Origin: Laetmonice hystrix
Taxonomy: Eukaryota
Length of the DNA stretch: 64,000 bases
Assembly: GCA_965235115.1 (NCBI GenBank)
Contig: OZ249436.1
Location: 994,001 to 1,058,000, forward strand
Direction of reading: 5' to 3'
Numbering within the stretch: the first letter of the stretch is position 1; each line of letters starts with the position of its first letter. Below, piece by piece: positions 30,416-61,645 of this stretch. Both the position numbers and the translations under genes were made by a program. The notes under the pieces are model-generated. The model was not told the origin of the DNA. It saw nothing but the letters and a program-made list of their open reading frames with translations, and did not search any database.

Positions 30416-30861
30416 TTGTTATGGGACTGTTGCACGAATACACGAGGCCGAATACAAGAGCAAGACCTCAAACTTTCTGAATCTGACATGGGTCAACCAG
30501 CAAGTTTTGGTATTCACATGATACTGAGTGGCCCATAAAAACCGGAATAGCATATATTTCCGTTATGCTGGTGCCAAAAAACTGGTAGGCCTATGGTAGG
30601 AAAGGAAATCTTTTAATGAAAAATGACACAAAAATCATCTGATTCGGTTGATTAGTTTTTTAATGGGAGCTATTTTTGTGTGGCAAGTCTTGGTTCAACG
30701 GTACAGCACTGGTTTAACTTCTTAACCATGATACTTCACACCTTAGTGTATACGTAGGCCACGTTCCACGTTTTGTTGTTAAGTTTGAAATCCTTTAATT
30801 AGTTGGTCGCTGAGCGAGTCCTGTACGTGACATATCAGTGCTGACAACAAAGCCCCGACAA

Positions 30862-39638: not shown

Positions 39639-39747
39639 GAATGGACTACAAAAAATGATTAATTGGGGGAACTAAAAGTGAATTGAGAAGAGTCACGAAA
39701 GACAGGAGTCAAAACATAAAGCTATAGACCACTATAACAATCATCGA

Positions 39748-39782
39748 TTCTTTTGAGACAGAGTGTGGCCCTGACAAGGGCC
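39748..39782 (-). terminator. Histone-type 3' stem-loop (39767-39782) plus HDE-like element, copy 1
   Basis: Minus strand ACAC GGCCCT TGTC AGGGCC ACAC TCTGTCT CAAAAGAA, 30 nt after the stop. Confidence 0.75.
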
Positions 39783-39812
39783 GTGTAGGTTTGTGTGAGA
39801 GAATGGTTCTCT

Positions 39813-40133
39813 TCACTGGTGCTGGTCGTCCTCATCCTCGCCCACCTCCTCCCAGTCGACCTGAAACTCCTCCATGAGGCGGTCCTGCATATCGTCCAGG
39901 AGGTCGGCACGGCTGTTGGCATACTCCCAGAACATGTTCCTCACTCCCTCCAGGGTGACCAGACGGAGACGGTTGTGGTAGCGGAAGGAGCGGCGGTTCT
40001 TGCGGACGGCACGTTCGTGTTTGGCCCTCATTTCCTTGATACGGTTGTTGAGGAGATTGACTTGCTGACAGGCCACCTTGAACTTGCGGTCCATCTGTCG
40101 CATCTCAGAGATAAGTTTATCAACTGGAGCCAT
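39813..40133 (-). CDS. 106-aa intronless helical/coiled-coil protein (basic core, acidic tail), copy 1
   Basis: MAPVDKLISEMRQMDRK...EEVGEDEDDQHQ; GTCATGG start context; ORF intact in five paralogs. The longer ORF-track version starts at a non-ATG codon. Confidence 0.85.
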   Translation of the reverse strand: MAPVDKLISEMRQMDRKFKVACQQVNLLNNRIKEMRAKHERAVRKNRRSFRYHNRLRLVTLEGVRNMFWEYANSRADLLDDMQDRLMEEFQVDWEEVGEDEDDQHQ

Positions 40134-40680
40134 GACTGTAGTAAAATATTCTGAGGGAATTGTTGCAAGCTGAAGGCTTAACGATGATTGTTTCCAAGTA
40201 ATGCTGGTGCCAGTAATATATGGTGGGAAAGAATCAGTGTGGAGGTGAGTGTTGATGGCAAGAGGCGGTCGTGAGGTGCGATAAAGGGTGCTCACTCTGA
40301 GCTAGTCGCTCAGTTGACACCTGACAAATGTGTCAGACGCTACATAGCCCTGACAGCATGGCCGCCTATTTTCGAATTTGGCGTGAAGTCATTAGAAGCC
40401 GTTAGCACTTCTCGACCAATCGGATAATTACATCACTGTCTTTTTATCTCATGGCGTTAATTCGTTCAGCCCTACGTCTTGTGACTTTATTCTACTTAGT
40501 AACTCCCTCCGTAAGAGGTCGCCACCGTGTTCATAGTGAGCCAAATTCCGCGACCATCATTTTAGTTTACGCCCATTCCGATAGAGGGCGCCAAAGTACC
40601 TGACCATGCTGTGCTCGATCAACTCAGCGCATTACACCCGCCTAAAGGCTCAGCTCTGTCTTCCCACGAATGTGTTAGAT
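40134..40680 (-). promoter_or_regulatory. Conserved upstream/promoter block of the 106-aa genes (repeated in all six copies)
   Basis: TATA-like TATATTA at 40214-40220, CCAAT at 40416-40420, E2F-like TTTGGCGC at 40588-40595; motif function is inferred. Confidence 0.5.
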
Positions 40681-40968
40681 TTCATTCATTTTCTTAACCT
40701 GTTTTTTTTTATTAGGATTATAATATGATATAGATTCAATATCGTATGGATACTGTTGAATTTGTGAACATTATTAATGTGTTCGTGTCTATAGGCCGTC
40801 TGCAAAGAGAAAAGCCAGGCAACAATGCGTGACAAAGCACTAGAAACTGTGCAAGAATAGACAGGGGGCACATAGAGGAAGGCATGAATATAGAAATTGA
40901 TACGAAGTAGGTAACTTTTTACTACCTTCTTTTCAAAGTATTTAATTATATCGGAGTACAGGGATCTT

Positions 40969-41225
40969 CAGGGGCGGATTTAGGGGATGCCGAGGGGGCC
41001 GCCCCCCCCTTTCGTCAGGGTATCAATCAGAAAAAAAGCAAACTTTTGTTGTTTGCAACTGTAATTTAAACATTTTGCTTTCTCAGAATGCAGGAAACGC
41101 CATTTCAGAGACTCTATGGTGTTCAAAATTGTCCGGGGGCATGCACCCGGACCCCCCTAGCAGGGCTCGGCCCCCCTTTAATTCCAACCGCCCCCCCCCT
41201 TTCCAAAATCCTGGATCCGCCCCTG
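40969..41225. mobile_element. MITE with CAGGGGCGGAT termini
   Basis: Inverted ends; empty site GGGATCTTGCAAT at ~61038; imperfect ATCTT/GTCTT duplication. Confidence 0.75.
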
Positions 41226-41754
41226 GTCTTGCAATATAACTGGCATGCCATTTAATGTACTGTTATAGAGGCACGATATGAAATTCTTTTTTAATCATTC
41301 TCGGACGACTTCGTTCTGTTTCCACATGGATTACAAAGAATGGTTCGTTGGGGAACTAAAAGGGAGCTGAGAAGAGTCATGAATTCGACAATTGTTTATT
41401 CTTGCACAGTTCCTAGTGCTTTGACACGCATTGTTGCCTGGCTTTTCTCTTTGCAGGCGGCCTATAGACACATAGAGGGAGACATGAATAAATTGATACG
41501 AAGTAGGTTACTTTTTACTATCTTCTTTTCAAAGTATTTAATTATATCGGAGTACATGGATCTTGCAATATAACTAGCATGCCATTTAATGTACTGTTAT
41601 AGAGGCACGATATATATGAAATTCTTTTTTAATCATTCTCGGACGACTTCGTTCTGTTTCTACATTGATTACAAAGGATTGTTCATTGGAGAACTAAAAA
41701 GGAGCTGAGAAGAGTCATGAAAGACAGGAGTCAAAACAAAATAACAATCATCGA

Positions 41755-41789
41755 ATCTCTTGAGACAGAGTGTGGCCCTGACAAGGGCC
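41755..41789 (-). terminator. Histone-type stem-loop (41774-41789) plus HDE-like CAAGAGA, copy 2
   Basis: Same 16-nt hairpin and same spacing from the stop. Confidence 0.7.
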
Positions 41790-41819
41790 GTGTAGGTTTG
41801 TGTGAGAGAATGGTTTTCT

Positions 41820-44023
41820 TCACTGGTGCTGGTCGTCATCGCCCTCGTACACCTCCTCCCAGTCGACCTGAAACTCCTCCATGAGGCGGTCCTCCATATC
41901 GTCCAGGAGGTCGGCACGGCTGTTGGCATACTCCCAGAACATGTTCCTCACTCCCTCCAGGGTGACCAGACGGAGGCGGTTGTGGTAGCGGAAGGAGCGG
42001 CGGTTCTTGCGGACGGCACGGTCGTGTTTGGTCCTCGTGTCCCTGATACGGTTGTTGAGGAGATTGACTTGCTGACAGGCCCTCTTGAACTTGCGGTCCA
42101 TCTGTCGCATCTGGGTCATTCCATGGGAAATCACCCAATTTTCAGACAAATCCCATAGTGATAGTCTTGGATTTGCTTCAAATTTTTTTGACATGTTGCC
42201 TGTGGTGCCAAATGAAAATATGCAAAGTTTTACCTCATTATCATTTATAGTTTTTTTTTAATAGGGGGTCAAAAAAGTGGGCGTGGCTCCTTTTATCGTA
42301 ACAAAAATGCTGCCGACAGATTTATTTCCATCTTTAACAAACCATAGCTCAGGAACTATCAACGATATCAACTTGATTTTTTTAACATAGATCCTTCATC
42401 ATGTACTCTCTTGTTGGCCGGTGTCAGATTAAAATTTAGTCAAGTAGGAGTCAAGCAATTATCTGCTACATTTAAGCATTTTTCTGACGAAAATGAAAAA
42501 TCGTCACATTTCAGATCAGCTTTTCACCCATACCTCATAGGATGAATTGAGTTTGGTTGTTTCTAAATGATAGCACAACTAAAGGGCTTCTTACAGTAAC
42601 AAAAGCAGTTACTTAAGATCAGTAGTTTTTTGGCAAGAATAGCAGGTACCGGGTCTCAGCAGGAAAAAAACCCTATTTGGGCCCCTTTTTTGAAGATGTG
42701 GGTATCCTTCGATTTTGATAATAATTATATCATCAGAAAGCCCTTGATGTGTACCATCAACATACCCATTTTCATTGTTAAACTAGCACCCTTTCATCTT
42801 GAAAAAAAATATTGATTTTTAAAAATATTGACACATTTCGGACGTCATCGTGTCCACCATGATCTTCTAAAGATAATACTGAAAACACATTCCTATGCAA
42901 ATTATTTTGATAATAATTATATCATCAGAAGGTGCTCCCTTGATGTGTACTGTCACCATGCCCATTTTCAATCTGGAATCTGTCTGGTTGTCTGGCAACC
43001 CTGTAATTAGAATGTGCTCCTACTTTTTTGCCAGTTTCTGTCGATTGGCCTGCCACCTAGTGAAATTTGAATGAACTACAATAGTGCTGATCTAGCAGTG
43101 CATTGGAATTTTCTTTACAGGGTATCCTCAGACCTGACCTAAGAAATGTCAAAATTTTAAAATACAGTAATTTTTTCCAAAATGAAAGAGTACTAGTTTT
43201 ACACTGAAAATAGGCATATAGGAATGTCTTTTCAGTATTATCTTTGGAAGATCATGGTGGGCATGATGACGTCTGAAATGTGTCATTATTGTTAAAAATC
43301 AATATTTTTTTCAAGATGGAAGGGTGCTAGTTTAACAATGAAAATAGGTATGTTGATGGTACACATCAAGGGTTTTCTGATGATATAATTATTATCAAAA
43401 TCGAAGGATACCCACATCTTCAAAAAAGGGGCCCAAATAGGGTTTTTTTCCTGCTGAGACCCGGTACCTGCTATTCTTGCCAAAAAACTACTGATCTTAA
43501 GTAACTGCTTTTGTTACTGTAGGAAGCCCTTTAGGTGTACTATCATTGAGAAACAACTAAACTCAATTCATCCTATGAGGTATGGGTGAAAAGCTGATCT
43601 GAAATGTGACGATTTTTCATTTTCGTCAGAAAAATGCTTAAATGTAGCAGATAATTGCTTGACTCCTACTTGATTAAATTTTAATCTGACACCTGCCAAC
43701 AAGAGAGTACATGATAAAGGATCTATGTTAAAAAAATAAGGTTGATATCGTTGATAGTTCCTGAGCTATGGCTGGTTAAAGATGGGAATAAATCTGTCGG
43801 CAGCATTTTTGTCGCGATAAAAGGAGCCACGCCCACTTTTTTGACCCCCTATTAAAAAAAAACTATAAATGATAATGAGGTAAAACTTTGCATATTTTCA
43901 TTTGGCACCACAGGCAACATGTTAAAAAAATTTGAAGCAAATCTGAGACTATCACTATGGGAGCCCTGGGTGATTTCACATGGAATGACCCATCTCAGAG
44001 ATGAGTTTATCAACTGGAGCCAT
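41820..44023 (-). pseudogene. 106-aa gene copy 2, interrupted at codon 10-11 by a 1.88-kb foldback transposon
   Basis: 5' part 43992-44023 and 3' part 41820-42112 flank the insertion. Confidence 0.85.
42113..43991. mobile_element. Non-autonomous foldback DNA transposon, Sola2-like
   Basis: Termini GGGTCATTCCATG...CATGGAATGACCC, ~750-800 bp inverted arms, 4-bp TSD ATCT (empty site visible in paralogs); GRG termini, 4-bp TSD and long TIRs fit Sola2; no transposase. Confidence 0.85.
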
Positions 44024-45809
44024 GACTGTAGTAAAATATTCTGAGGGAATTGTTGCAAGCTGAAGGCTTAACGATGATTGTTTCCAAGTAATGCTGGTGC
44101 CCGTAATATATGGTGGGAAAGAATCAGTGTGGAGGTGAGTGTTGATGGCAAGAGGCGGTCGTGAGGTGCGATAAAGGGTGCTCACTCTGAGCTAGTCGCT
44201 CAGTTGACACCTGACAAATATGTGTCAGACGCTACATAGCCCTGACGGCATGGCCGCCTATTTTCGAATTTGGCGTGAAGTCATTAGAAGCCGGTAGCAG
44301 TTCTCGCCCAATCGGTAACTAAATCACTGCCTTTTTTTTATCTAATGGCGTTAATTCGTTCAGCCCCACGTCTTGTGACTTCATACTACTTAGTAACTCC
44401 CTCCGTAAGAGGTCGCCACCGTGTTCATAGTGAGCCAAATTCCGCGACCACCGTTTTAGTTTATGCCCCTTCCGATAGAGGGCGCCAAAGTACCTGACCA
44501 TGCCGTGTTCAATCAACTCAGCGCATTACACCCGCCTAAAAGCTCAGCTCTGTCTTCCTACGAATGTGTTATATTTCATTCATTGTCTTAACCTGGCTTT
44601 TCATTAGGATTATAATGATATACATTCAATATCGTATGGATACTATTGAATTTGTTTAAGATTTTTCAAAAAGGATTTTCAACCTGCCGTCCATTCTGTT
44701 CAAGAATAGAAAGGGGGACGGGCCCTAGAGTGTTCAAGCATGTAAGGCGGGCGGGCCCTAGAGTGGTCATACTTTGTATTCTATTGTTATTGACAAAACC
44801 TAGCAATTCAAGGTACACTTTTCTGGGGGGAGTCACTGAGTTGAAGTTTTTTTTTGTCCAATATAAACAATATTCTTGTGTTTCTAGGGAAAGATTCGCT
44901 ATTTACTAAAACATGTTCTGATCACCTCTGTCCCCTAGAATGTACACAATTTTAACCGTGAAAACAAGAATGCTGGTTTGTTGAACAACATCACACAACG
45001 TGGTAATTCCTGTGGCGTCTGGTCTGAGATAAATAGGTAGCTATATCGGAAAAAGTTTGATTTTCTCTAACATAAGAGGCAATTGGTTTCCTTTAATCAG
45101 CCGAACATGACTGAAGAAGATATATTCGGCCGACTCGAATATTCGGCCGACTGTGAACAACTGTCATGAGTGCGCAGCCCTAGCACTAGATCTATACGAT
45201 CTACGTTGCAGTTTTAAAGAGGGGCGTTCGTACTTTTGAAAGGGGATCGTCCAAAAGGGGGTTCCCCCGACCGACCCCCCCCCCCCCCAACCCCAGCGTT
45301 CTGGACTATATGCACATTTTACGAATTTAACACCGGCCCGAGGCCGCACGCAGCCAAAGGGCCAGGCCGAGGTCATGAAGAGCATATTTTTATTTGAAAA
45401 AGGCAGGTTTCCTTCGTGTCAGCCCCCCCCCCCCTCCCCGCTAAATACGGACCCAATATTGGCATTTAATCGAACAAGTCGCGAAACTACACACCACACA
45501 TTACATAACTGGTCAAAATGTGTCCTTGAACGGGCGAGCGTCTCGACACGGGATGTCACGAAAATAGAACCAAGATCGAGGCGTTTGACCTTTGACATGG
45601 ACTGGTTCGTCTGGACGCATTCTGTCACGTGGCACGCAACTATATAAACATTACCATTTCGAGAATACGGTCAGTCAGCAAGTTGAAAAGGCCCCGCGAA
45701 CATTGAAAGATCACGTTGTCAGGAATGACAGGTAAGATTGTTTCGGAACGTTGCCTTTATAATGTATGGATAGAAACATGCGGGACAAGACACGTGCATG
45801 CATGTGCTC

Positions 45810-46215
45810 TAGTCCCGTCTAGGGCATTTGCCCCCCAGACATCCGCCCCAAGACATTTTCCCCCGGATTTTTGACCCCCGGACATTTCCTCCCGTAGGAC
45901 TTCTGCCCCCTAGGAAATCTGCCCCCCAGACTTCCACCCACCCCCCACCCCCGGACATTAACCCCCGTAGGACTTCTGCTCCCCTAGGACACCTAACCCT
46001 ATAACCCTAACACTAACACTAGGGGGCATATGTCCTAGGAGGGGGGGGGGGGGCAAAAGTTCTACGGGGCTAATGTCCGGGGGGGGGGCGAATATCTGGG
46101 GGGAGGGCAGATGTCCTAGGGGGCAGAAGTCCGGGGGCTGATGTCCTAGGGGGCAGATGTCCTAGGGGACAGAAGTCCGGGGGCAGATGTCCAGTAGGAA
46201 GTGTCCTGATACCGT
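45810..46215. repeat. Imperfect foldback element with C-rich/G-rich arms and central (CCCTAA)-like repeats (also ~54317-54720 and ~63492-63891)
   Basis: GGACWTCTGCCCCC motifs mirrored by GGGGGCAGAWGTCC; centre CTAACCCTATAACCCTAACACTAACAC. Confidence 0.6.
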
Positions 46216-49200
46216 ATAGAGCCCAACCCCTGGATATGTTCCATAAACATGTATCCCTAGTATGTTAATGTATCTATATTATCCATTATATAAACATGTA
46301 TCCATAGTATGTTAATGTATCTATATTTCCATTATATAAACATGTATCCCTAGTATGTTAATGTATCTATATTTCCATTATATAAACATGTATCCTCAGT
46401 ATGTTAATGTATCTATATTTCCATTATATAAACATAGTATGTTAATGTTTCTATATTTCCATTATATAGGTGGCCTTCTCAGTGACTTCTTTCGAGGAGA
46501 CCATTTCCTAAGATGGTGCTGCCATCTTCCGGGGAGACTTCTGCCATTTCCCGCAGTGAACCTCTCAAGTAGGAATGAGTCTACTTTGATACCGTACGTC
46601 TTCATGGATTACTTACTGGAGGGAGGTACATTTTCATGGATTACTTACTGGAAGGAGTGTTATGTCCTGATGGATTTAAATCCTGATGAGCCTAATAGGA
46701 TTATATGCATGAGCCGATATGCCTGATGAACTGATATGCCTGATGAACTGATATGCCTGATGAACTGATTAGCCTGAGAACTGATATGCCGGGTGGCATG
46801 AATTACCAGGCTTCAATCAACCAGGCCAAGACTACGTGAGGCGGCACCAGGACACTAGATCAGTGAGTACTTTCCTCTACACGCGCATTCTGCCGAATTT
46901 ATCAATTGTATTTAATTTTTTCGAGAGTAAGATAAAGGTAACATTCTCCCTTCATGACTCTCCACACAATTTTTTAATAGTACTTTCAAATCAACTTTTG
47001 AATCGCAGACTCTATAACCTTAATCTATTCAGACCTTTCCGTATTCAAGGGATGTCAATAACTCGTATAACTCGTATTTTTTAAAACAATGACCTTTTCG
47101 GGGTTTCTCAGATTTGGAATGTTTGGGAGGATTACCCTCAACTAATTCATTATGTCTGCATATGGTAGGTGTTATATAAGTACATGTATTCTTTTCTTTG
47201 CAGTATATGTGCCATCGTCGACAGGTAGGGAAGATTTCTAGTACTAGCCAGAGATAAACCTGGAGACGTCCAGCTATATCTCGCGTTAAGGTCGCAGAGC
47301 TAAGGACCACATGTTCTGAACTCTGGTATTTAACTACCAAATTCAATGGTATACAACAGGGTAAAATGTTCGCCCCAGTGGATAACATTGAATTTGTAAA
47401 TAAATGAAGGACCAAATGATTTCGATAAACCGAACGCAAGTTATAGAACTTGCATTAGCTGATCAATACATGGTAGGTAGGGATCGATGGGATAACTGTA
47501 CATGTCAACGTTTGACAATACAAACTACAAGCATAGGTAGTGATAGCGGTGTGGAGATTTTATCCACAGATTTCTATAGTATGGATATTCGCTGGATATG
47601 GACCATATCACCTATTGATCGCCGTCCATATTTAAAACAAGTACACTTATTGGTTGGCGAGACCGCCAGGAAGTCTAACATTCAACAATCGAATATCATC
47701 GCGATTTCGAACATCATCGCCATTTCTGGCATACAGTGAGGCTTGTCACCGCCTCAGATTATTTATCAACACATTATATATCACACATTATACATTGAAT
47801 TATCCACATTATTACACTCGTACCTTTCCTATACATGAATGTCGAACGAACAGCCACCTTACTTCAGGAGTGAGCTCTCAGGATTGATTCCCACATAACT
47901 TTGGTTTGCAATGGGATTTCTACGCGTTTCTTGAACCAAAAGAGCACACAAGTATGGTGTATCCCTCACTTTTGTTTCCACCTACAGGTAATTCAGTTTA
48001 CATCAAGTTGACATTATACAACCCGCCTGGACATGTAAGTCGTGTGAAGTACGACTTCATCGCGATATTTTTATGAATTGTTCTTTTTCGCGTGTTTTTT
48101 CAAGGATGCTTTTTTTCGCGGGTTTTTTTAAGCTTGCTTTTTTCGCGTGTTTTTTCAAGGTTGATTTTTTCCGCGTGGTTTTTTCCAAGCTTGTTATTTT
48201 CGCGTAGTTTTTTCAAGCTTGCTTTTTTGAACCATTATGGCAAATTCACTTTGACTTTTCGTACGCGGACGTGTGTCGCAGATCTCTCACGAGTTTCCCT
48301 GTGCAATCTTTGTCAGGGTATTTTCTTGTACCGTGACATTAGATTGTGACAGATGATTTAAGGCTTTAAGTTTTACCCACATACAGGTGAATTTTTACCC
48401 ACATACAGGTAATTCAGCGAGGAACAAGATTCAGTCTTAGGTTTGCATTTTGACAGACCCCCGTCTGTATGTAATGTAAACCAGGACATTGTCGCGATAT
48501 TTTTATGACGCGCTATTTTCACGATATTTTTCATTCACTCGCGTGTCTTTTTTCATCTCGATTCCGAAGATTCACCTTGATATTTTCGGACGTGCATTTT
48601 TTGCAACGTGTCTCTCGCGGATTCTGTTGTCGACACCGTCCTGGTCCCGTCGTACTGATGAAACCCTAGGAATTCCTATTGATGGTAGGTATTGATCTTT
48701 AGGTTTAAGTTGTCATGTCTCGTCCATGTCTTTGTCTTTGTCCTGTTTTATTATTCCAAATTAAGACTCGATGTTAAACTCGGTATTTGGCACTTTGGTT
48801 GGCATTTATTTTAATACTTTTACTTGCTAAATTATGAGCCACAGATCCAGGTATAATTTCGATATAAAGTTCACCTGTCTTTTGGCTCAGTATAAAAGTG
48901 TCCTTAAATTTTGATCCTTCGCACTTTCTTTTGATTAAGGTAAGTTATCTACTGGGAGTGTGAACGATCTTAATTTATGGACATTGTTTTAGGAGTATTC
49001 CAAAGGCGGTGGTGATGAAATCAATGAACCATCGGGAACTGTGAAAGACTACAACGTGATGTTGCAGATCGAATCTGTGAAACGATGGTCGTAGTCGTCA
49101 TTGAATCACCACCGTATAATATCTGAATGAAGATCTCATAACAAAGAATCGCTCATAATCTGAATTTGTTAAACATTGAAAGTTTTTTCTTCTTTTTGTT

Positions 49201-49295
49201 GCTGCCGCACGGTGCTGTTCCTGCTAGTAGGCCTACTCATGATGTCAAATCTTTGACAGACAAAAATCTGTTCTTAATATTTGCGTACATATTTT

Positions 49296-49495
49296 CAGGG
49301 CCGGAGCCTGCCCAAAAATGTCAGGGGGGGGGGGGGGGGCAGTGTCCTATGAACATTAACCACATAGGCCTAACGCGTGATAGCGCGTCATTGCGCCGGT
49401 CGAGCTGCATGGGTTACAAAAAATTGAAATCCCAGGGGGGCAGTTGTTCCCCTTGCCCCCCCCCCCCCCAGGCTACTGCCCGCAGGCTACGGCCA
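49296..49495. mobile_element. MITE with CAGGGCC(G/A)(G/T)AGCCTGC termini (also ~57864-58046; fragment at 23149-23270)
   Basis: CAGGGCCGGAGCCTGC...GCAGGCTACGGCC imperfect inverted ends. Confidence 0.55.
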
Positions 49496-50067
49496 CATGT
49501 GATAGCTCGACACCAGGACATTGTACATTGGTGTTCACAGAATGTAGGAAAATGAACTTTTCTTTCAATTTCTTTTGGGTATGTACCCGACCCTTTAGCA
49601 TGGCGTTGCAGCTCTGGTGGTTGCAGGTATTTCACTGCGCCCAGACGTTCCTAAAAGCAAGCGTCACACCTGATGGCTAACGTACAGATCCACAGAGGCC
49701 TGCTCGATGTTTCATGCAGGCAAAGGCTACTGACATTTCTTCACACGTCAGTGAGTCGCAAAACAACAGACCCAAACAATAGAGCGTGTAATAATAGTCT
49801 GTCCCTGCGACTGGCGCTCTTATTTGCATATCAAATAGGTATCAAGACATGGTCACGTGATCAGAGAGGGCGCTCACGTCGCAATTTTGCTGGGTAGTTT
49901 TCAAAATAAACAAATGTATCCGTTTATGTTCACTAAAACTTCGTTCTGTTTGCACATGGATTACAAAGGATGGTTCATTGGGGAACTAAAAGGGAGCTGA
50001 GATGAGTCATGAAAGACAGGAGTCAAAACATATTACTCTAAGATATTATATCTATAGCAATCTTCGA

Positions 50068-50102
50068 TTCTTTTGAGACAGAGTGTGGCCCTGACAAGGG
50101 CC
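50068..50102 (-). terminator. Histone-type stem-loop (50087-50102) plus HDE-like element, copy 3
   Basis: Identical hairpin and CAAAAGAA. Confidence 0.75.
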
Positions 50103-50132
50103 GTGTAAGTTTGTGTGAGAGAATGGTTCTCT

Positions 50133-50453
50133 TCACTGGTGCTGGTCGTCTTCATCCTCGCACACCTCCTCCCAGTCCACCTGAAACTCCTCCATGAGGC
50201 GGTCCTCCATATCGTCCAGGAGGTCGGCACGGCTGTTGGCATACTCCCAGAACATGTTCCTCACTCCCTCCAGGGTGACCAGACGGAGCCGGTTGTGGTA
50301 GCGGAAGGAGCGGCGGTTCTTGCGGACGGCACGTTCGTGTTTGGCCCTCATTTCCTTGATACGGTTGTTGAGGAGATTGACTTGCTGACAGGCCACCTTG
50401 AACGTGCGGTCCATCTGGCGCATCTCAGAGATGAGTTTATCAACTGTAGCCAT
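50133..50453 (-). CDS. 106-aa protein, copy 3
   Basis: MATVDKLISEMRQMDRT..., intact ORF. Confidence 0.85.
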   Translation of the reverse strand: MATVDKLISEMRQMDRTFKVACQQVNLLNNRIKEMRAKHERAVRKNRRSFRYHNRLRLVTLEGVRNMFWEYANSRADLLDDMEDRLMEEFQVDWEEVCEDEDDQHQ

Positions 50454-51302
50454 GACTGTAGTAAAATATTCTGAGGGAATTGTTGCAAGCTGAAGGCTTA
50501 ACGATGATTGTTTCCAAGTAATGCTGGTGCCCGTAATATATGGTGGGAAAGAATCAGTGTGGAGGTGAGTGTTGATGGCAAGAGGCGGTCGTGAGGTGCG
50601 ATAAAGGGTGCATATGCTCACTCTGAGCTATTCACTCAGTTGACACCTGACAAATGTGTCAGACGCTACATAGCCCTGACAGCATGGCCGCTTTTTTTCG
50701 AATTTGGCGTGAAGTCATTAGAAGCCGGTAGCAGTTCTCGCCCAATCGGTAACTAAATCACTGCCTTTTTTTTTTTTTTTTATCTCATGGCGTTAATTCG
50801 TTCAGCCCCACGTCTTGTGACTTCATTCGACTTAGTAACTCCCTCCGTAAGAGGTCGCCACCGTGTTTATAGTGAGCCAAATTCCGCGACCACCGTTTTA
50901 GTTTACGCCCCTTCCGATAGAGGACGCCAAAGTACCTGACCATGCCGTGCTCGATCAACTCAGCGCATTACACCCGCCTAAAGGCTCAGCTCTGTCTTCC
51001 CACGAATGTGTTATATTTCATTCGTTGTCTTAACCTTGCTTTTCATTAGGATTATAATATGATATAGATTCAATATCGTAAGGATACTGTTGAATTTGTG
51101 AACATAATTAATGTGTTCGTGTCTATAGGCCGCCTGCAAAGAGAAAAGCCAGGCAACAATGCGTGACAAAGCACTAGAAACTGTGCAAGAATGGACAGGG
51201 GGCACATAGAGGGAGGCATGAATATAGAAATTGATACGAAGTAGGTTACTTTTTACTATCTTCTTTTCAAAGTATTTAATTATATCGGAGTACAGGGATC
51301 TT

Positions 51303-51559
51303 CAGGGGCGGATTTAGGGGGTGCCGAGGGGGCCGCCCCCCCTTTCGTCAGGATACCAATCAGAAAAAAAGAAAACTTTTGTTGTTTGCAACTGTAATTT
51401 AAACATTTTGCTTTCTCAAAATGCAGGAAACGCCATTTCAGAGACTCTAGGTGTTCAAAATTATCCGGGGGCATGCCCCCGGACCCCCCTAGCAGGGCTC
51501 GGCCCCCCTTTAATTCCAACCGCCCCCCCCCCCTTTCCAAAATCCTGGATCCGCCCCTG
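51303..51559. mobile_element. Duplicated copy of the CAGGGGCGGAT MITE
   Basis: Same element at the corresponding site in duplication unit 2. Confidence 0.75.
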
Positions 51560-52089
51560 GTCTTGCAATATAACTGGCATGCCATTTAATGTACTGTTTA
51601 TAGAGGCACGATATGAAATTCTTTTTTATTCATTCTCGGACGACTTCGTTCTGTTTCCACATGGATTACAAAGAATGGTTCGTTGGGGAACTAAAAGGGA
51701 GCTGAGAAGAGTCATGAATTCGACAATTGTCTATTGTTGCACAGTTTCTAGTGCTTTGACACGCATTGTTGCCTGGCTTTTCTCTTTGCAGGCGGCCTAT
51801 ACACACATAGAGGGAGACATGAATATAGACATTGATACGAAGTAGGTTACTTTTTACTATCTTCTTTTCAAAGTATTTAATTATATCGGAGTACAGGGAT
51901 CTTGCAATATAACTAGCATGCCATTTAATGTACTGTTATAGAGGCACGATATGAAATTCTTTTTTATTCATTCTCGGACGACTTCGTTCTGTTTCCACAT
52001 GGATTACAAAGGATGGTTCATTGGATAACTAAAAGGGAGCTGATAAGAGTCATCAAAGACAGGAGTCAAAACAAAATAACAATCATCGA

Positions 52090-52124
52090 TTCTTTTGAGA
52101 CAGAGTGTGGCCCTGACAAGGGCC
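52090..52124 (-). terminator. Histone-type stem-loop (52109-52124) plus HDE-like element, copy 4
   Basis: Identical hairpin and CAAAAGAA. Confidence 0.75.
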
Positions 52125-52154
52125 GTGTAGGTTTGTGTGAGAGAATGGTTCTCT

Positions 52155-52475
52155 TCACTGGTGCTGGTCGTCCTCATCCTCGCACACCTCCTCCCAGTCG
52201 ACCTGAAACTCCTCCATGAGGCGGTCCTGCATATCGTCCAGGAGGTCGGCACGGCTGTTGGCGTACTCCCAGAACATGTTCCTCACTCCCTCCAGGGTGA
52301 CCAGACGGAGGCGGCTGTGGTAGCGGAAGGAGCGGCGGTTCTTGCGGACGGCACGGTCGTGTTTGGTCCTCATTTCCTTGATACGGTTGTTAAGGAGATT
52401 GACTTGCTGACAGGCCACCTTGAACTTGCGGTCCATCTGGCGCATCTCTGAGATGAGTCTTTGAACTGGAGCCAT
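52155..52475 (-). CDS. 106-aa protein, copy 4
   Basis: MAPVQRLISEM..., intact ORF. Confidence 0.85.
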   Translation of the reverse strand: MAPVQRLISEMRQMDRKFKVACQQVNLLNNRIKEMRTKHDRAVRKNRRSFRYHSRLRLVTLEGVRNMFWEYANSRADLLDDMQDRLMEEFQVDWEEVCEDEDDQHQ

Positions 52476-53371
52476 GACTGTAGTAAAATATTCTGAGGGA
52501 ATTGTTGCAAGCTGAAGGCTTAACGATGATTGTTTCCAAGTAATGCTGGTGCCCGTAATATATGGTGGGAAAGAATCACTGTGTAGGTGAGTGTTGATGG
52601 CAAGAGGCGGTCGTGAGGTGCGATAAAGGGTGCTCACTCTGAGCTAGTCGCTCAGTTGACACCTGACAAATGTGTCAGACGCTACATAGCCCTGACAGCA
52701 TGGCCGCTTTTTTTCGAATTTGGCGTGAAGTCATTAGAAGCCGGTAGCAGTTCTCGCCCAATCGGATAATTACATCACTGTCTTTTTTTTTATCTCATGG
52801 CGTTAATTCGTTCAGCCCCACGTCTTGTGACTTCATTCTACTTAGTAACTCCCTCCGTAAGAGGTCGCCACCGTGTTCATAGTGAGCCAAATTCCGCGAC
52901 CACCGTTTTAGTTTATGCCCCTTCCGATAGAGGGCGCCAAAGTACCTGACCATGCCGTGCTCGATCAACTCAGCGCATTACACCCGCCTGAAAGCTCAGC
53001 TCTGTCTTCCTACGAATGTGTTATATTTCATTCATTGTCTTAACCTGGCTTTTCATTAGGATTATAATGATATACATTCAATATCGTATGGATACTATTG
53101 AATTTGTTTAAGATTTTTCAAAAAGAATTTTCAACCTGCCGTCCATTCTGTTCAAGAATAGAAAAGGGGACGGGCCCTAGAGTGATCAAGCATGTGAGGG
53201 GGGCGGGCCCTAGAGTGGTCATACTTTGTATTCTATTGTTATTGACAAAACCTAGCAATTCAAGGTACACTTTTCTGGGGGGAGTCACTGAGTTGAAGTT
53301 TTTTTTTTGTCCAATATAAACAATATTCTTGTGTTTCTAGGGAAAGATTCGCTATTTACTAAAACATGTTC

Positions 53372-53517
53372 TAATCACCCCTGACCCCTAGAATGTAATC
53401 ACCCCTGACCCCTAGAATGTAATCACCCCTGACCCCTAGAATGTAATCACCCCTGACCCCTAGAATGTAATCACCCCTGACCCCTAGAATGTAATCACTC
53501 CTGACCCCTAGAATGTA
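53372..53517. repeat. 24-bp minisatellite, 6 copies (also 62545-62690)
   Basis: aatcacccctgacccctagaatgt. Confidence 0.9.
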
Positions 53518-56500
53518 CACAATTTTAACCGTGAAAACAAGAATGCTCGTTTGTTGAACAACATCACACAATGGTAATTCCTGTGGCGTCTGGTCTGAGA
53601 TAAATTTGTAAACATGTAGGTAGCTATATCGGAAATAGTTTGATTTTTTCTAACATAAGATGCAATTGGTTCCTTTTAATCAGCCGAACATGGCTGAAGA
53701 AGATATATTCGACCGACTCGAATATTCGGCCGACTGTGAACAACTGAGTGCGCTGCCCTAGCACTAGATCTACGATCTACGTTGCAGTTTTAAAGAGGGG
53801 GGGGGGGGTCGTACTTTTGAAAGGGGATTTTACGAATTTAACACCGGCCCGAGGCCACATGCAGCCAAAGGGCCAGGCAGAGGTCATGAAGAGCATATTT
53901 TTATTTAAAAAAGGCAGGTTTCCTTCGTGTCAGCTCCCCCCTCCCCGCTAAATACGGATCTAATATTGGCATTTCATCGAACAAGTCGCGAAACTACACA
54001 CCACACATTACATAACTGGTCCAAATGTGTCCTTGAACGGGCGAGCGTCTCGACACGGGATGTCACGAAAATAGAACCAAGATCGAAGCGTTTGAACTTT
54101 GACATGGACTGGTTCGTCTGGACGCATTCTGTCACGTGGCACGCAACTATATAAAGATTACCATTTCGAGAATACGGTCAGTCAGCAAGTTGAAAAGGCC
54201 CCGCGAACATTGAAAGATCACGTTGTCAGGAATGAGAGGTAAGATTGTTTCGGAACGTTGCCTTTATAATGTATGGATAGAAACATGCGGGACAAGACAC
54301 GTGCATGCATGTGCTCTAGTCCCGTCTAGGGCATTTGCCCCCCAGACATCCGCCCCAAGACATTTTCCCCCGGATTTTTGACCCCCGGACATTTCCTCCC
54401 GTAGGACTTCTGCCCCCTAGGAAATCTGCCCCCCAGACTTCCACCCACCCCCCACCCCCGGACATTAACCCCCGTAGGACTTCTGCTCCCCTAGGACACC
54501 TAACCATAACCCTAACACTAACACTAGGGGGCATATGTCCTAGGAGGGGGGGGGGGGGGCAAAAGTTCTACGGGGCTAATGTCCGGGGGGGGGGGCAATA
54601 TCTGGGGGGAGGGCAGATGTCCTAGGGGGCAGAAGTCCGGGGGCTGATGTCCTAGGGGGCAGATGTCCTAGGGGACAGAAGTCCGGGGGCAGATGTCCAG
54701 TAGGAAGTGTCCTGATACCGTATAGAGCCCAACCCCTGGATATGTTCCATAAACATGTATCCCTAGTATGTTAATGTATCTATATTATCCATTATATAAA
54801 CATGTATCCATAGTATGTTAATGTATCTATATTATCCATTATATAAACATGTATCCCTAGTATGTTAATGTATCTATATTTCCATTATATAAACATGTAT
54901 CCCTAGTATGTTAATGTATCTATATTTCCATTATATAAACATGTATCCTCAGTATGTTAATGTATCTATATTTCCATTATATAAACATAGTATGTTAATG
55001 TTTCTATATTTCCATTATATAGGTGGCCTTCTCAGTGACTTCTTTCGAGGAGACCATTTCCTAAGATGGTGCTGCCATCTTCCGGGGAGACTTCTGCCAT
55101 TTCCCGCAGTAAACCTCTCAAGTAGGAATGAGTCTACTTTGATACCGTACGTCTTCATGGATTACTTACTGGAGGGAGGTACATTTTCATGGATTACTTA
55201 CTGTAAGGAGTGTTATGTCCTGATGGATTTAAATCCTGATGAGCCTAATAGGATTATATGCATGAGCCGATATGCCTGATGAACTGATATGCCTGATGAA
55301 CTGATTAGCCTGAGAACTGATATGCCGGGTGGCATGAATTACCAGGCTTCAATCAACCAGGCCAAGACTACGTGAGGCGGCACCAGGACACTAGATCAGT
55401 GAGTACAACTTTCCTCTACACGCGCATTCTGCCGAATTTATCAATTGTATTTAATTTTTTCGAGAGTAAGATAAAGGTAACATTCTCCCTTCATGACTCT
55501 CCGTACAATTTTAAATAGTACTTTCAAATCAACTTTTGAATCGCAGACTCTATAACCATAATCTATTCAGACCTTTCCGTATTCAAGGGATGTCAATAAC
55601 TCGTATAACTCGTATTTTTTAAAACAATGACCTTTTCGGGGTTTCTCAGATTTGGAATGTTTGGGAGGATTACCCTCAACTGATTCATTATGTCTGCATG
55701 TGGTAGGTGTTATATAAGTACATGTATTCTTTTCTTTGCAGTATATGTGCCATCGTCGACAGGTAGGGAAGATTTCTAGTACTAGCCAGAGATAAACCTG
55801 GAGACGTCCAGCTATATCTCACGTTAAGGTCGCAGAGCCAAGGACCACATGTTCTGAACTCTGGTATTTAACTACCAAATTCAATGGTATACAACGGGGC
55901 AAAATGTTCGCCCCAGTGAATAACATTGAATTTGTAAATAAATAAAGGACCAAATGATTTCGATAAACCGAACGCAAGTTATAGAACTTGCATTAGCTGA
56001 TCAATACATGGTAGGTAGGGATAGATGGGATAACTGTACATGTCAACGTTTGACAATACAAACGACAAGCATAGGTAGTGATAGCGTGTGGACATTTTAC
56101 CCACAGATTTCTATAGTATGGATATTCGCTGGATATGGACCATATCACCTATTGATCGCCGTCCATATTTAAAACAAGTACACTTATTGGTTGGCGAGAC
56201 CGCCAGGAAGTCTAACATTCAACAATCGAATATCATCGCGATTTCGATCATCATCGCCATTTCTGGCATACAGTGAGGCTTGTCACCGCCTCAGATTATT
56301 TATCAACACATTATATATTATACATTGAATTATCCACACATTATATATCACACATTATACATTGAATTATCCACATTATTACACTCGTACCTTTCCTATA
56401 CATGAATGTCGAACGAACAGTCACCTTACTTCAGGAGTGAGCTCTCAGGATTGATTCCCACATAACTTTGGTTTGCAATGGGATTTCTACGCGTTTCTTG

Positions 56501-59500
56501 AACCAAAAGAGCACACAAGTATGGTGTATCCCTCACTTTTGTTTCCACCTACAGGTAATTCAATTTACATCAAGTTGACATTATACAACCCGCCTGGACA
56601 TGTAAGTCGTGTGAAGTACGACTTCATCGCGATATTTTTATGAATTGTTCTTTTTCGCGTGTTTTTTCAAGGATGCTTTTTTTCGCGGGTTTTTTTAAGC
56701 TTGCTTTTTTCGCGTGTTTTTTCAAGGTTGATTTTTTCCGCGTGGTTTTTTCCAAGCTTGTTATTTTCGCGTAGTTTTTTCAAGCTTGCTTTTTTGAACC
56801 ATTATGGCAAATTCTCTTTGACTTTTCGTACGCGGACGTGTGTCGCAGATCTCTCACGAGTTTCCCTGTGCAATCTTTGTCAGGGTATTTTCTTGTACCG
56901 TGACCTTAGATTGTGACAGATAATTTAAGGCTTTAAGTTTTACCCACATACAGGTGAATTTTTACCCACATACAGGTAATTCAGCGAGGAACAAGATTCA
57001 GTCTTAGGTTTGCATTTTGACAGACCCCCGTCTGTATGTAATGTAAACCAGGACATTGTCGCGATATTTTTATGACGCGCTATTTTCACGATATTTTTCA
57101 TTCACTCGCGTGTCTTTTTTCATCTCGATTCCGAAGATTCACCTTGATATTTTCGGACGTGCATTTTTTGCAACGTGTCTCTCGCGGATTCTGTTGTCGA
57201 CACCGTCCTGGTCCCGTCGTACTGATGAAACCCTAGGAATTCCTATTGATGGTAGGTATTGATCTTTAGGTTTAAGTTGTCATGTCTCGTCCATGTCTTT
57301 GTCTTTGTCCTGTTTTATTATTCCAAATTAAGACTCGATGTTAAACTCGGTATTTGGCACTTTGGTTGGCATTTATTTTTAATACTTTTACTTGCTAAAT
57401 TATGAGCCACAGATCCAGGTATAATTTCGATATAAAGTTCACCTGTCTTTTGGCTCAGTATAAAAGTGTCCTTAAATTTTGATCCTTCGCACTTTCTTTT
57501 GATTAAGGTAAGTTATCTACTGGGAGTGTGAACGATCTTAATTTATGGACATTGTTTTAGGAGTATTCCAAAGGCGGTGGTGATGAAATCAATGAACCAT
57601 CGGGAACTGTGAAAGACTACAACGTGATGTTGCAGATCGAATCTGTGAAACGATGGTCGTAGTCGTCATTGAATCACCACCGTATAATATCTGAATAAAG
57701 ATCTCATAACAAAGAATCGCTCATAATCTGAATTTGTTAAACATTGAAAGTTTTCTTTTTTCTGTTGCTGCCGCACGGTGCTGTTCCTGCTGGTAGGCCT
57801 ACTCATGATGTGAAATCTTTGAACAGACAAAAATCTGTTCTTAATATTTGCGTACATAACTTCAGGGCCATAGCCTGCCCAAAAATGTCGGGGGGGGGAG
57901 TGTCCTATGAACATTAACCAGATAGGCCTAACGCGTGATAGCGCGTCAATGCGCCGGTCGAGCTGGGTTACAAAAAATTGAAATCCCAGGGGGGCAGTTG
58001 TTCCCCTTGCCCCCCCCCCCAGGCTACTGCCCGCAGGCTACGGCCACATGTGATAGCTCGACACCAGGACATTGTACATTGGTGTTCACAGAATGTAGGA
58101 AAATGAACTTTTCTTTCAATTTTTTTTGGGTATGTACCCGACCCTGTAGCATGGCGTTGCAGCTCTGGTGGTTGCAGGTATTTCACTGCGCCCATACTTT
58201 CCTAAAAGCAAGCGTCACACCTGATGGCTAAATATACGTACAGATCCACATAGGCCTGCTCGATGTGTCATGCAGGCAAAGGCTACTGACATTTCTTCAC
58301 ACGTCAGTGAGCGGCAAAACAACAGACCCAAACAATAGAGCGTCTAATAATAGTCTGTCCCTGCGACTGGCACTCTTATTTACATATCAAATAGGTATCA
58401 AGACATGCTCACGTGACTAGAGATGGCGCTCACGTCGCAATTTTGCTGGGTAGTTTTCAAAATACACAAATGTATCTGTTTATGTTCACTAAAACAAATT
58501 TTACAGAGGTAAAATGTCTATCACAATTTGCCTTTAATCTTTACCTAAAACCTGTAGTACTTGAATACTTCTAATTTCGCCGGAACTCTGTTTGTATCCT
58601 AGCATAACGTTGAGTGTATGTGCACACCCTTTCTGTGGTCCTCGAACTGGAGGGGGGTATATAAAGCAATTGGTACCACTGTAGTAATGTAGGGAACAGC
58701 GAGACGCCGGTCTCCACGTTCGGTCGTAGTCTGGAAACAGACGCTGTTGAAAACCTGACAGTACGAAGAGTTCGGCTCGGTTGGTGTGTGTCCACTTGGA
58801 GAGGTGAGGGTGTAACTCGGCGATAAGTGTGACACAACTCTTCTAAAGGGATCTAGCAATAGAACCCGTACCCCGTCAGTGGGATCAATCTGCGGCAAGG
58901 TTCCAAATCAGTTGTCTCTCAATGGGTTATCGTGTGTTCTCCAGACGCCAGATCTTCGAACGGTATAGGACTTGGACCAAGTCTCAAGGATCAGTTCCCC
59001 TTTTTTAGTACTCTGAATTTTTAGTTACTCTCAGCTCGATACAAATGATAATAAAAAGTGTCCTGAGTCACTCTAGTCCCAGAACTCGATTCCTCCGTGA
59101 TCATCTCAAGTCAGTCAAATAAACTTTTATTGATGGACTTGGAGGAATATGTGCATTCAGAACTAACAACTGAAAACCTGTGGTTTTGAACTGTACCTGT
59201 GTGTAATGCATTATGGTTTTGAATCTTACATATAGGGGGAGAACTGAATAAAAGAATACTTTGATTCTTGGCTGTGCATGGGGTTGAAGTGACATGACAA
59301 ACTTTTGGTCAGTTGGTGACATGACAAACTTTAAGCCTGAGTCAAAAGCCTGGTTTGGATGACATTCACACCCATTGGCCCTGTGTGACACTGAGCTGGC
59401 AGGGTGCTTTTTGATGTCCGTGTCAGTTGTTCATGATGTCAATAACGAGTTTAAAGACTATAGGCCTACTATTTCAAAATTGTCAAAGGGGTACATTGTA

Positions 59501-59826
59501 CTTAGTAAATTCCATGTGAATGAAAATAACCTCCAGAGGTAAAGTCGGCACGGCAGTACATGCGGAACAGTTGCTATTATATCGGAACACAGGGAACTTG
59601 CAATATAACTGGGAACTTGCAATATAACTGATATTGTCTGTTATATGTCTGTTATAGAGGCACGGTTTGAAATTCTTTTTTAATCATTGTCGGACGACTT
59701 CGTTCTGTTTCCACATGGATTACAAAGGATGGTTCATTGGGGAACTAAAAGGGAGCTGAGATGAGTCATGAAAGACAGGAGTCAAAACATATTACTCTAA
59801 GATATTATATCTATAGCAATCTTCGA

Positions 59827-59861
59827 TTCTTTTGAGACAGAGTGTGGCCCTGACAAGGGCC
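59827..59861 (-). terminator. Histone-type stem-loop (59846-59861) plus HDE-like element, copy 5
   Basis: Identical hairpin and CAAAAGAA. Confidence 0.75.
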
Positions 59862-59891
59862 GTGTAGGTTTGTGTGAGAGAATGGTTCTCT

Positions 59892-60212
59892 TCACTGGTG
59901 CTGGTCGTCCTCATCCTCGCACACCTCCTCCCAGTCGACCTGAAACTCCTCCATGAGGCGGTCCTCCATATCGTCCAGGAGGTCGGCACGGCTGTTGGCG
60001 TACTCCCAGAACATGTTCCTCACTCCCTCCAGGGTGACCAGACGGAGCCGGGTGTGGTAGCGGAAGGTGCGGCGGTTCTTGCGGACGGCACGGTCGTGTT
60101 TGGTCCTCATGTCCCTGATACGGTTGTTGAGGAGATTGACTTGCTGACAGGCCACCTTGAACTTGCGGTCCATCTGGCGCATCTCAGAGATGAGTTTAGC
60201 AACTGGAGCCAT
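59892..60212 (-). CDS. 106-aa protein, copy 5
   Basis: MAPVAKLISEM..., intact ORF. Confidence 0.85.
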   Translation of the reverse strand: MAPVAKLISEMRQMDRKFKVACQQVNLLNNRIRDMRTKHDRAVRKNRRTFRYHTRLRLVTLEGVRNMFWEYANSRADLLDDMEDRLMEEFQVDWEEVCEDEDDQHQ

Positions 60213-61259
60213 GACTGTAGTAAAATATTCTGAGGGAATTGTTGCAAGCTGAAGGCTTAACGAAGATTGTTTCCAAGTAATGCTGGTGCCCGTAATATAT
60301 GGTGGGAAAGAATCAGTGTGGAGGTGAGTGTTGATGGCAAGAGGCGGTCGTGAGGTGTGATAAAGGGCGCTCACTCTGAGCTAGTCGCTCAGTTGACACC
60401 TGACAAATGTGTTAGACGCTGTAGCCCTGACAGCATGGCCGCCTATTTTCGAATTTGGCGTGAAGTCATTAGAAGCCGGTAGCAGTTCTCGACCAATCGG
60501 ATAATTACATCACTGTCTTTTTATCTCATGGCGTTAATTCGTTCAGCACCACGTCTTGTGACTTCATTCTACTTAGTAACTCCCTCCGTAAGAGGTCGCC
60601 ACCGTGTTCATAGTGAGCCAAATTCCGCGACCACCGTTTTAGTTTACGCCCCTTCCGATAGAGGACGCCAAAGTACCTGACCATGCCGTGCTCGATCAAC
60701 TCAGCGCATTACACCCGCCTAAAGGCTATCAGCTCTGTCTTCCCACGAATGTGTTATATTTCATTCATTGTCTTAACCTGGCTTTTCATTAGGATTATAA
60801 TATGATATAGATTCAATATCGTATGGATACTGTTGAATTTGTGAACATTATTAATGTGTTCGTGTCTATAGGCCGCCTGCAAAGAGAAAAGCCAGGCAAC
60901 AATGCGTGGCAAAGCACTAGAAACTGTGCAAGAATGGACAGGGGACACATAGAGGGAGGCATGAATATAGAAATTGATACGAAGTAGGTTACTTTGTACT
61001 ATCTTCTTTTCAAAGTATTTAATTATATCGGAGTACAGGGATCTTGCAATATAACTAGCATGCCATTTAATGTACTGTTATAGAGGCACGATATGAATTT
61101 TTTTTTAATCATTCTCGGACGACTTCGTTCTGTTTCCACATGGATTACAAAGGATGGTTCATTGGGGAAACTAAAAGGGAGCTGAAAAGAGTCATGAAAG
61201 ACAGGAGTCAAATTATATCACTCTAAGATATTTGCTATCGCCTATTTAGCAATCTTCGA

Positions 61260-61294
61260 TTCTTTTGAGACAGAGTGTGGCCCTGACAAGGGCC
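61260..61294 (-). terminator. Histone-type stem-loop (61279-61294) plus HDE-like element, copy 6
   Basis: Identical hairpin and CAAAAGAA. Confidence 0.75.
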
Positions 61295-61324
61295 GTGTAG
61301 GTTTGTGTGAGAGAATTGTTCTCT

Positions 61325-61645
61325 TCACTGGTGCTGGTCGTCATCGTCCTCGTATACCTCCTCCCAGTCGACCTGAAACTCCTCCATGAGGCGGTCCTCC
61401 ATATCGTCCAGGAGGTCTGCACGGCTGTTGGCGTACTCCCAGAACATGTTCCTCACTCCCTCCAGGGTGACCAGACGGAGGCGGCTGTGGTAGCGGAAGG
61501 AGCGGCGGTTCTTGCGGACGGCACGGTCGTGTTTGGTCCTCATTTCCTTGATACGGTTGTTAAGGAGATTGACTTGCTGACAGGCCACCTTGAACTTGCG
61601 GTCCATCTGGCGCATCTCTGAGATGAGTCTTTGAACTGGAGCCAT
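61325..61645 (-). CDS. 106-aa protein, copy 6
   Basis: MAPVQRLISEM...VYEDDDDQHQ, intact ORF. Confidence 0.85.
   Translation of the reverse strand: MAPVQRLISEMRQMDRKFKVACQQVNLLNNRIKEMRTKHDRAVRKNRRSFRYHSRLRLVTLEGVRNMFWEYANSRADLLDDMEDRLMEEFQVDWEEVYEDDDDQHQ

Follow-up and report, generated by a model that had tools for sequence, protein, structure and literature searches.

Can the signal that forms the 3′ ends of histone mRNAs serve a gene that does not encode a histone? The question is raised by a 64,000-nucleotide (nt) stretch of Laetmonice hystrix DNA (C1:994001-1058000 of the 627-Mb, 35-contig assembly GCA_965235115.1), here called the window, in which six copies of a small gene without histone signature are each followed by a hairpin and a purine-rich element of histone type. 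Excerpts of two articles (PMC4604434, PMC6303110) describe histone mRNAs as the sole known cellular mRNAs that end in a stem-loop and not in poly(A). According to the first of these excerpts, crosslinking and immunoprecipitation (CLIP) and RNA immunoprecipitation (RIP) of SLBP, the protein that binds the stem-loop, gave no other client in human cells, and for Drosophila the available part of PMC2781718 states that there is no evidence of SLBP binding non-histone RNAs. Sequence comparison within this genome and beyond it leads us to a different expectation: the six copies belong to a large lophotrochozoan non-histone family whose pre-mRNAs probably carry a working histone 3′-end signal, on which at least a large share of the transcripts would rely.

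The 3′ signal and the histone genes of the same genome

The hairpin GGCCCT-TGTC-AGGGCC begins 30 nt 3′ of the stop codon of the open reading frame (ORF) in all six window copies. Its exact 16-mer, GGCCCTTGTCAGGGCC, has six matches in the window, all on the minus strand (39767, 41774, 50087, 52109, 59846 and 61279), where 0.06 would be expected, and none of 100 shuffles gets to six. The 6-bp stem, GGCCCU/AGGGCC in each copy, has the G at the second stem position, and the 4-nt loop UGUC has U at positions 1 and 3. Past the stem come 11 nt, ACACTCTGTCT, and then the element CAAAAGAATCGAT, which in copy 2 reads CAAGAGATTCGAT. An invariant hairpin 30 nt past the stop and a purine-rich element 11 nt past the stem were what the initial annotation had described from the letters of the window, and both descriptions are borne out. 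It had also remarked that coding positions vary, and the ORFs, 106 amino acids (aa) long in five copies, do differ at a few codons.

For comparison we inspected the sequence 3′ of the H3, H2B, H1 and two H2A genes of this genome. Stem and loop, spacer between stem and downstream element, and the element itself are as follows.

H3: GGCCCT-tctc-AGGGCC, spacer 12 nt, CAAAAGAGTCGAT
H2B: GGTCCT-tctc-AGGACC, spacer 12 nt, CAAAAGAATCGAT
H2A: GGTCCT-tctc-AGGACC, spacer 13 nt, GAAAGATTCGAT
H2A, second gene: GGTCCT-tctc-AGGACC, spacer 13 nt, GAAAAGAGTCGAT
H1: GGCTCT-tctc-AGAGCC, spacer 12 nt, CAGAAGTGTCGAT
Window copies: GGCCCT-tgtc-AGGGCC, spacer 11 nt, CAAAAGAATCGAT

The 13-mer of the window is that of the genome's own H2B gene in every letter, at a spacing of 11 instead of 12 nt, and the elements of H3, H2A and H1 are close variants of it. 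Because the match to H2B is letter for letter, we take the histone downstream element of this genome to be a purine run followed by TCGAT; at the level of sequence, the non-histone family genes have exactly that. The hairpin in turn obeys the GGYYYU/ARRRCC rule of the H3, H2A, H2B and H1 genes, and the earlier proposal of a histone-type signal is upheld on both counts. Scored with the Rfam model RF00032 (Histone3) in a 151-nt scan, the window hairpin reached 27.2 bits (E 4e-6), the same range as the genome's own H3 (28.6 bits), H2B (25.6 bits) and H2A (25.3 bits) hairpins.

A composite motif of stem-loop, 9-15 nt and AAAGANTCGA occurs at 387 sites in the genome and at none for the reversed control. 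Six further sites of this motif that were sampled comprised four H2B genes or pseudogenes, one distant family member and one ambiguous case. The genome also encodes an SLBP RNA-binding domain, at C5:10.536-10.538 Mb.

An alignment of the 3′ region of 20 family and 5 histone sequences retains stem pairing in 150 of 150 cells. All 25 sequences have G-C at the first and second pair, and the second-position G, reported in PMC10388802 as needed for SLBP binding, is invariant; two other stem pairs show compensatory changes from C-G to U-A, and one position has a G-U wobble. The observed covariation score was matched by 0 of 500 shuffles, and when the partner strand was slid by one column pairing came to 50-66%. 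Among 15 mutually diverged family members the information content is about 2 bits over the hairpin and over AAAAGA.TCGAT, and about 0 in both flanks. It had been cautioned that the window copies are young, which would make their invariance weak evidence. That caveat can be lifted because the signal is conserved in diverged paralogues with unalignable flanks: paralogues down to 36% identity, and one gene at 17%, keep both elements.

The protein encoded ahead of this signal had been said to lack a recognisable histone signature, and the searches agree. No Pfam family (PF00125 included) matched the window protein or 12 longer homologues, and none matched consistently among 79 family members. A profile search against PDB sequences returned coiled-coil noise only (E≥0.095) and no histone. 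An AlphaFold2 model built on the 79-sequence alignment (mean predicted local distance difference test score, pLDDT, 94.1; predicted template modelling score, pTM, 0.80) pairs two long helices in antiparallel orientation (residues 3-44 and 48-90) and adds a short third helix (94-103), after which comes an acidic tail. Foldseek found no match in the PDB at E≤0.001 and no histone among the 50 rows shown; its top rows were generic helical hairpins (ESCRT-III, PspA/Vipp1 and ING dimerisation domains). As modelled, the family protein folds into a helical hairpin, basic on one face and acidic in its tail; it is not a histone. Conservation is highest at F18, Q24, R38, A42, R55, E62, R65 and Y71. We would guess at a chromatin- or histone-associated role, going only by the acidic tail and by how the genes would be expressed; a predicted complex of the family protein with the genome's own H2A and H2B scored 0.23, with a mark of 0.34, which counts neither for nor against such a role.

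Set beside the animal histone 3′ signal (RF00032 plus downstream element, with SLBP and U7), the window genes share the 6-bp GGYYYU/ARRRCC stem, a loop of 4 nt whose first and third bases are U, the A/C-rich tail, and a purine-rich element that lies 11-12 nt past the stem and matches the one of the genome's own H2B in every letter. They also have the short 3′ untranslated region (UTR), the lack of introns and, within the family, the tandem arrays of replication-dependent histone genes. The differences are the gene ahead, a non-histone family ORF, and the G at loop position 2 in the window clade, the histone loop consensus being U-Y-U-N. A histone gene ahead of the signal is the one defining feature that the window genes lack.

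Relatives in the genome and elsewhere

Searched in six frames, the genome has at least 151 matches to the window protein (516 candidates, 150 scored), and 147 of the 150 listed matches are free of internal stops. They are distributed as follows.

C1: 1.03-1.06, 1.58-1.64 and 3.76-3.81 Mb: family arrays
C19:12.549-12.643 Mb: tandem array with a 1.32-1.33-kb unit, 71 listed matches
C6: smaller array
C2, C3, C4, C5, C8, C21 and C30: single family genes or small clusters

The intronless, clustered organisation recognised in the window is thereby confirmed, on a genome-wide scale far beyond one window. Three sequencing runs of one sample gave contigs as long as 160 kb, at word depths in the thousands; these are genomic DNA mirroring copy number and not a record of expression.

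A non-redundant set of 24 paralogues spans 36-100% protein identity to the window copy. In 22 of them the hairpin lies 16-282 nt past the stop, in flanks that are otherwise unalignable, and with few exceptions AAAAGA.TCGAT comes after it. The paralogue hairpins score 21-40 bits with RF00032, and several (34.2-40.4 bits) pass the Rfam gathering score of 34. Several of the top Histone3 matches of the whole genome (37.3-40.4 bits; on C5, C8 and C21) adjoin diverged family paralogues, not histones. Paralogue loops include UUUC, UCUC, UAUC, UCUU and UUUU; one locus, L074, has GUUG, without U at position 1. The most distant relative lies in a cluster at C1:56.38-56.44 Mb: at 17% identity it is recognised at the profile level only (hhalign probability 96.6%, E 5.7e-10), and it bears GGCCCT-tttc-AGGGCC together with CCCAAAAGAATCGAT. 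Upstream, many paralogues have a TATA sequence 60-105 nt before the ATG and 7 of 19 have AGCCAAT; these TATA and CCAAT boxes are generic and do not establish a promoter motif common to the family and the histones.

Some paralogues depart from one gene with one hairpin. Locus L063 (C1:3766000-3768300) has six tandem hairpins in a 33-nt repeat, 43-224 nt past the stop, the downstream element following the last hairpin only, and L065 and L069 have two hairpins each. Locus L070 (C8:19420000-19429999) repeats a 3.2-kb unit in tandem; the unit comprises a tRNA gene (68-74 bits) and two family genes that point in divergent directions, have diverged from one another and have a hairpin and element each.

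Outside this genome, the window protein matched 652 representative clusters at E≤0.001 and 229 at E≤1e-10 in a library of 1.84 billion proteins, and a profile search gave 457 proteins at E≤1e-8. The few named homologues are each a 'hypothetical protein': MAR_017287 of the bivalve Mya arenaria, SNE40_022570 of the gastropod Patella caerulea, and LSAT2_008627 and LSAT2_015069 of the annelid Lamellibrachia satsuma. No names were returned for ten homologue clusters that we looked up, and Protein Atlas offered unnamed clusters only, with recognition below a useful level. A scan of metagenome contigs yielded 18 loci with relatives at 34-57% identity, 17 of them usable in having both a stop codon and downstream DNA. 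Whether homologues in other invertebrates keep the hairpin had been named as a check; of the 17 metagenome relatives nine do, with an RF00032 match of 26-35 bits on the same strand 14-102 nt past the stop, and the other eight are taken up below. The stems are GGTCCT/AGGACC, GGCCCT/AGGGCC, GGTCCT/AGGGCC and GGTTCT/AGAACC, and the purine-rich elements are unlike that of the window. On this comparison the association of family and hairpin is old and is found in more than one genome.

Gene copies in the window and other hairpin loci

The window genes are compact and intronless, with TATATT 87 nt upstream of the ATG in five copies. The annotated features are these.

39743..40220, minus strand: copy 1, predicted whole transcription unit; TATATT 40215-40220, ORF 39813-40133 (106 aa)
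39767-39782 and 39743-39755, minus strand: copy 1 stem-loop and element CAAAAGAATCGAT
41750..42112, minus strand: copy 2, 3′ part; ORF from codon 11 to the stop (41820 onwards)
41774-41789 and 41750-41762, minus strand: copy 2 stem-loop and element CAAGAGATTCGAT; the 5′ part is cut off by an insertion
42113..43990: insertion splitting copy 2, about 1.88 kb; foldback or terminal inverted repeat (TIR)-type element
43991..44300, minus strand: copy 2, promoter, 5′ UTR and codons 1-11, cut off from the rest of the gene; ATG 44021-44023
50063..50540, minus strand: copy 3; TATATT 50535-50540, ORF 50133-50453, stem-loop 50087-50102, element 50063-50075
51963-51968, minus strand: AATAAA of copy 4, 187 nt 3′ of the stop
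52085..52562, minus strand: copy 4; TATATT 52557-52562, ORF 52155-52475, stem-loop 52109-52124, element 52085-52097
59679-59684, minus strand: ATTAAA of copy 5
59822..60299, minus strand: copy 5; TATATT 60294-60299, ORF 59892-60212, stem-loop 59846-59861, element 59822-59834
61104-61109, minus strand: ATTAAA of copy 6
61255..61732, minus strand: copy 6; TATATT 61727-61732, ORF 61325-61645, stem-loop 61279-61294, element 61255-61267

Three statements of the initial annotation need amendment here. It counted six intronless 106-aa copies, which is right for five; copy 2 is interrupted by the insertion after codon 11, and the 124-aa ORF called there is a chimera. The insertion has outer inverted repeats of 26 nt (42112-42137 and 43967-43992) and inner arms of 658 nt that are 97% complementary, with AGATG on either side, which looks like a target-site duplication. 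Secondly, the flank was said to diverge soon after the downstream element. It does not: past a short indel the six copies align for at least 150 nt further. Thirdly, the absence of a nearby AATAAA holds for copies 1 and 3 and fails for the other four, as discussed in the next section.

A higher-order duplication of about 8.5-9.2 kb (44600-49100 versus 53000-57700 and 62200-63450) contains the gene pairs of the window. Between its units the spacer (repeat families D9-D15) is 98-100% identical, and it holds a repeated 123-aa low-complexity ORF (46355-46726, 54908-55279). Positions 1-27000 and 36716-38115 are dense in minisatellites, with long repetitive ORFs on both strands; the minisatellite at 36716-38115 has a 50-nt unit repeated about 25 times. 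Amid the window minisatellites lie a CUB-domain exon (10516-11067, minus strand) and a kringle-domain exon (13590-14099, minus strand); such exons, like the named mollusc and annelid homologues, point to a lophotrochozoan. The region 30000-36000 is G-rich, with GC skew of up to +0.52 and GC content of up to 61%, and a weak PIRT-like match (E 3.9e-4, below cut-off) was obtained for its 293-aa ORF on the minus strand, 34985-35866.

Other histone-type hairpins were seen in the genome. A dispersed repeat (L014-L023; on C1, C2, C4, C5, C7 and C18, for example C1:37207212-37207257) carries the canonical histone-type hairpin cccaaacGGCCCTtttcAGGGCCacaaccgatcacaaaagaagag on at least six chromosomes at 35.5-36.9 bits, above the Rfam cut-off. 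This hairpin follows variable, internally repetitive sequence without a family match, and the repeat is possibly a mobile element whose 3′ end resembles that of a histone gene. H1 genes form arrays of their own, with 4.1-4.7-kb repeats, at C4:36.09-36.20 Mb and C20:6.82-6.93 Mb (L024-L030, L079), separate from the core-histone arrays at C4:36.53-36.63 Mb (7.4-kb repeat) and C20:7.16-7.20 Mb; the H1 3′ UTRs have a degenerate hairpin immediately upstream of the real one. There are also many extra H2B genes and frameshifted pseudogenes (C3:20.49-20.61, C1:6.63, and C4:5.02 and 12.15 Mb; L111, L113, L114, L116), and these copies, among them a 3.49-kb tandem array, have the H2B-type hairpin and downstream element intact.

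How the transcripts may end

If the signal works as it does in histone genes, the course of events can be sketched from the established pathway, as set out in excerpts of three articles (PMC5435866, PMC1635294, PMC10388802). SLBP would bind the 6-bp, 4-nt hairpin 30 nt past the stop, the U7 small nuclear ribonucleoprotein (snRNP) would pair with CAAAAGA(A/G)UCGAU 11 nt beyond the stem, and the U7-associated endonuclease would cut a few nt 3′ of the stem; in copy 1 the cut would be expected about 3-5 nt past it, near 39762-39764. The product would be a short mRNA, some 430 nt long, closed by the hairpin in place of a poly(A) tail. It would be made, translated and degraded along with the histone mRNAs, either coupled to replication or stored for the early cleavage divisions, and the ATTAAA or AATAAA downstream of four copies would be a back-up site at most.

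Several observations weigh against this account. Nothing in the whole window reaches the RF00032 gathering score, the hairpin of the six copies included; since the genome's own H3, H2B and H2A hairpins also miss 34 bits, we do not hold the sub-cut-off score against it. Position 2 of the loop is G in the window clade, where other clades have U, C or A. The bases before the window stem are AC, not AA, and the genome's own core histones have AU; the consulted portion of PMC10388802 reports AA in this place for full SLBP affinity. A search for U7 small nuclear RNA (snRNA) with RF00066 across the genome found no match among the 65 scored of 126063 candidates. Three pattern searches for the complement of the element with an Sm-like site gave 15 candidates, none with a convincing Sm site and terminal hairpin, and the top Rfam U7 score among the ten of these that were scored was 16.1 bits (E 1.8). 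The ratio of nonsynonymous to synonymous substitution rates (dN/dS) has a median of 0.56 among ten close copies, moderately below 1; this is weak to moderate short-range constraint, in contrast to the deep conservation of the core. The hairpin is missing in two of the 24 paralogues (C30:1.896 Mb and C8:18.855 Mb).

It is likewise missing in eight of the 17 metagenome relatives, four of which have AATAAA 21-74 nt past the stop, so that the family seems able to use ordinary polyadenylation as well. In this the family seems to resemble the histone variant system, having hairpin-ended members (most paralogues here) and hairpin-less members with AATAAA (elsewhere); a difference in expression timing between the two kinds of gene, as with histone variants, is only an analogy.

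The last point against is the hexamer, ATTAAA or AATAAA, that copies 2, 4, 5 and 6 have at a shared position 187-216 nt 3′ of the stop. It leads to the alternative that the hairpin does bind SLBP while the mRNA is mainly polyadenylated downstream, which would make the hairpin an internal 3′-UTR element acting in translation, stability or localisation. A copy in the C6 array has a hexamer at +205 as well, and precedents come from the consulted parts of two articles: one describes SLBP-dependent polyadenylated histone mRNAs in Drosophila oogenesis (PMC11997800), and the other says that mussel H1 'orphon' genes bear a polyadenylation signal (PMC6210712). We nevertheless think this alternative unlikely. 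Copies 1 and 3 have neither AATAAA nor ATTAAA within 600 nt of the stop, and a hexamer within 420 nt of the stop in 9 of the 24 paralogues is, by our own arithmetic, about what chance would give at this base composition. Nor would it account for the U7-type element, which has been retained at the proper distance and agrees with the H2B element in every letter.

A second alternative takes the arrays to be non-functional amplified DNA (pseudogenes, satellite-like sequence or mobile cargo) in which a histone 3′ flank was captured once and has since been hitch-hiking unused. The very high copy number, the near-identical arrays and the dN/dS value would fit, as would decaying copies such as the split copy 2 and the mutated or half-deleted stems of L032/L056 and L051; the separate dispersed repeat described above likewise bears a histone-type hairpin. 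Nearly all listed matches are open, however, and the protein core is conserved in the 652 clusters, bivalve, gastropod and annelid proteins among them. Hairpin and element are conserved islands in unalignable flanks and show compensatory changes, and a single unselected capture would not yield their retention at 17-50% identity or on contigs from other sources. We regard this alternative as very improbable.

That the protein is after all a very divergent histone or linker-histone-like chromatin protein is scarcely credible: the histone-like gene organisation and a small protein with a basic stretch and an acidic tail would suit it, whereas PF00125 and every other Pfam family went unmatched, the PDB profile search gave noise, and two long antiparallel helices with a short third are not the short-long-short histone fold.

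The likely reading therefore stays with a non-histone family whose transcripts are in large part ended by the histone machinery. Full-text literature searches found no report of a non-histone family with the histone 3′ signal, and a term search of recent papers on histone genes and histone 3′-end processing found no mention of such non-histone genes. The processing signal itself is already known; what would be new, judging from the sequences compared here, is a large non-histone client family that keeps it over deep divergence. We put forward, tentatively and as a possibility that we would not lean on, that lophotrochozoans run a second, ancient class of clients through the SLBP/U7 pathway: acidic-tailed helical hairpins encoded in histone-like arrays, split, as the histones are, into hairpin-ended members coupled to replication or to the cleavage stage and polyadenylated members, and acting with chromatin in amounts tied to DNA synthesis. 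The rule that only histones use the pathway might then be true of model organisms and not of all animals.

Should the RNAs end as predicted, the pathway would be a general device for coupling gene output to DNA replication and not one private to histones. This would also explain why such genes are under-counted, as tail-less transcripts drop out of poly(A)-selected libraries; the homologues are almost all unnamed ORFs or 'hypothetical protein'. For an uncharacterised protein family, the link to S phase or early cleavage would be a direct handle on function.

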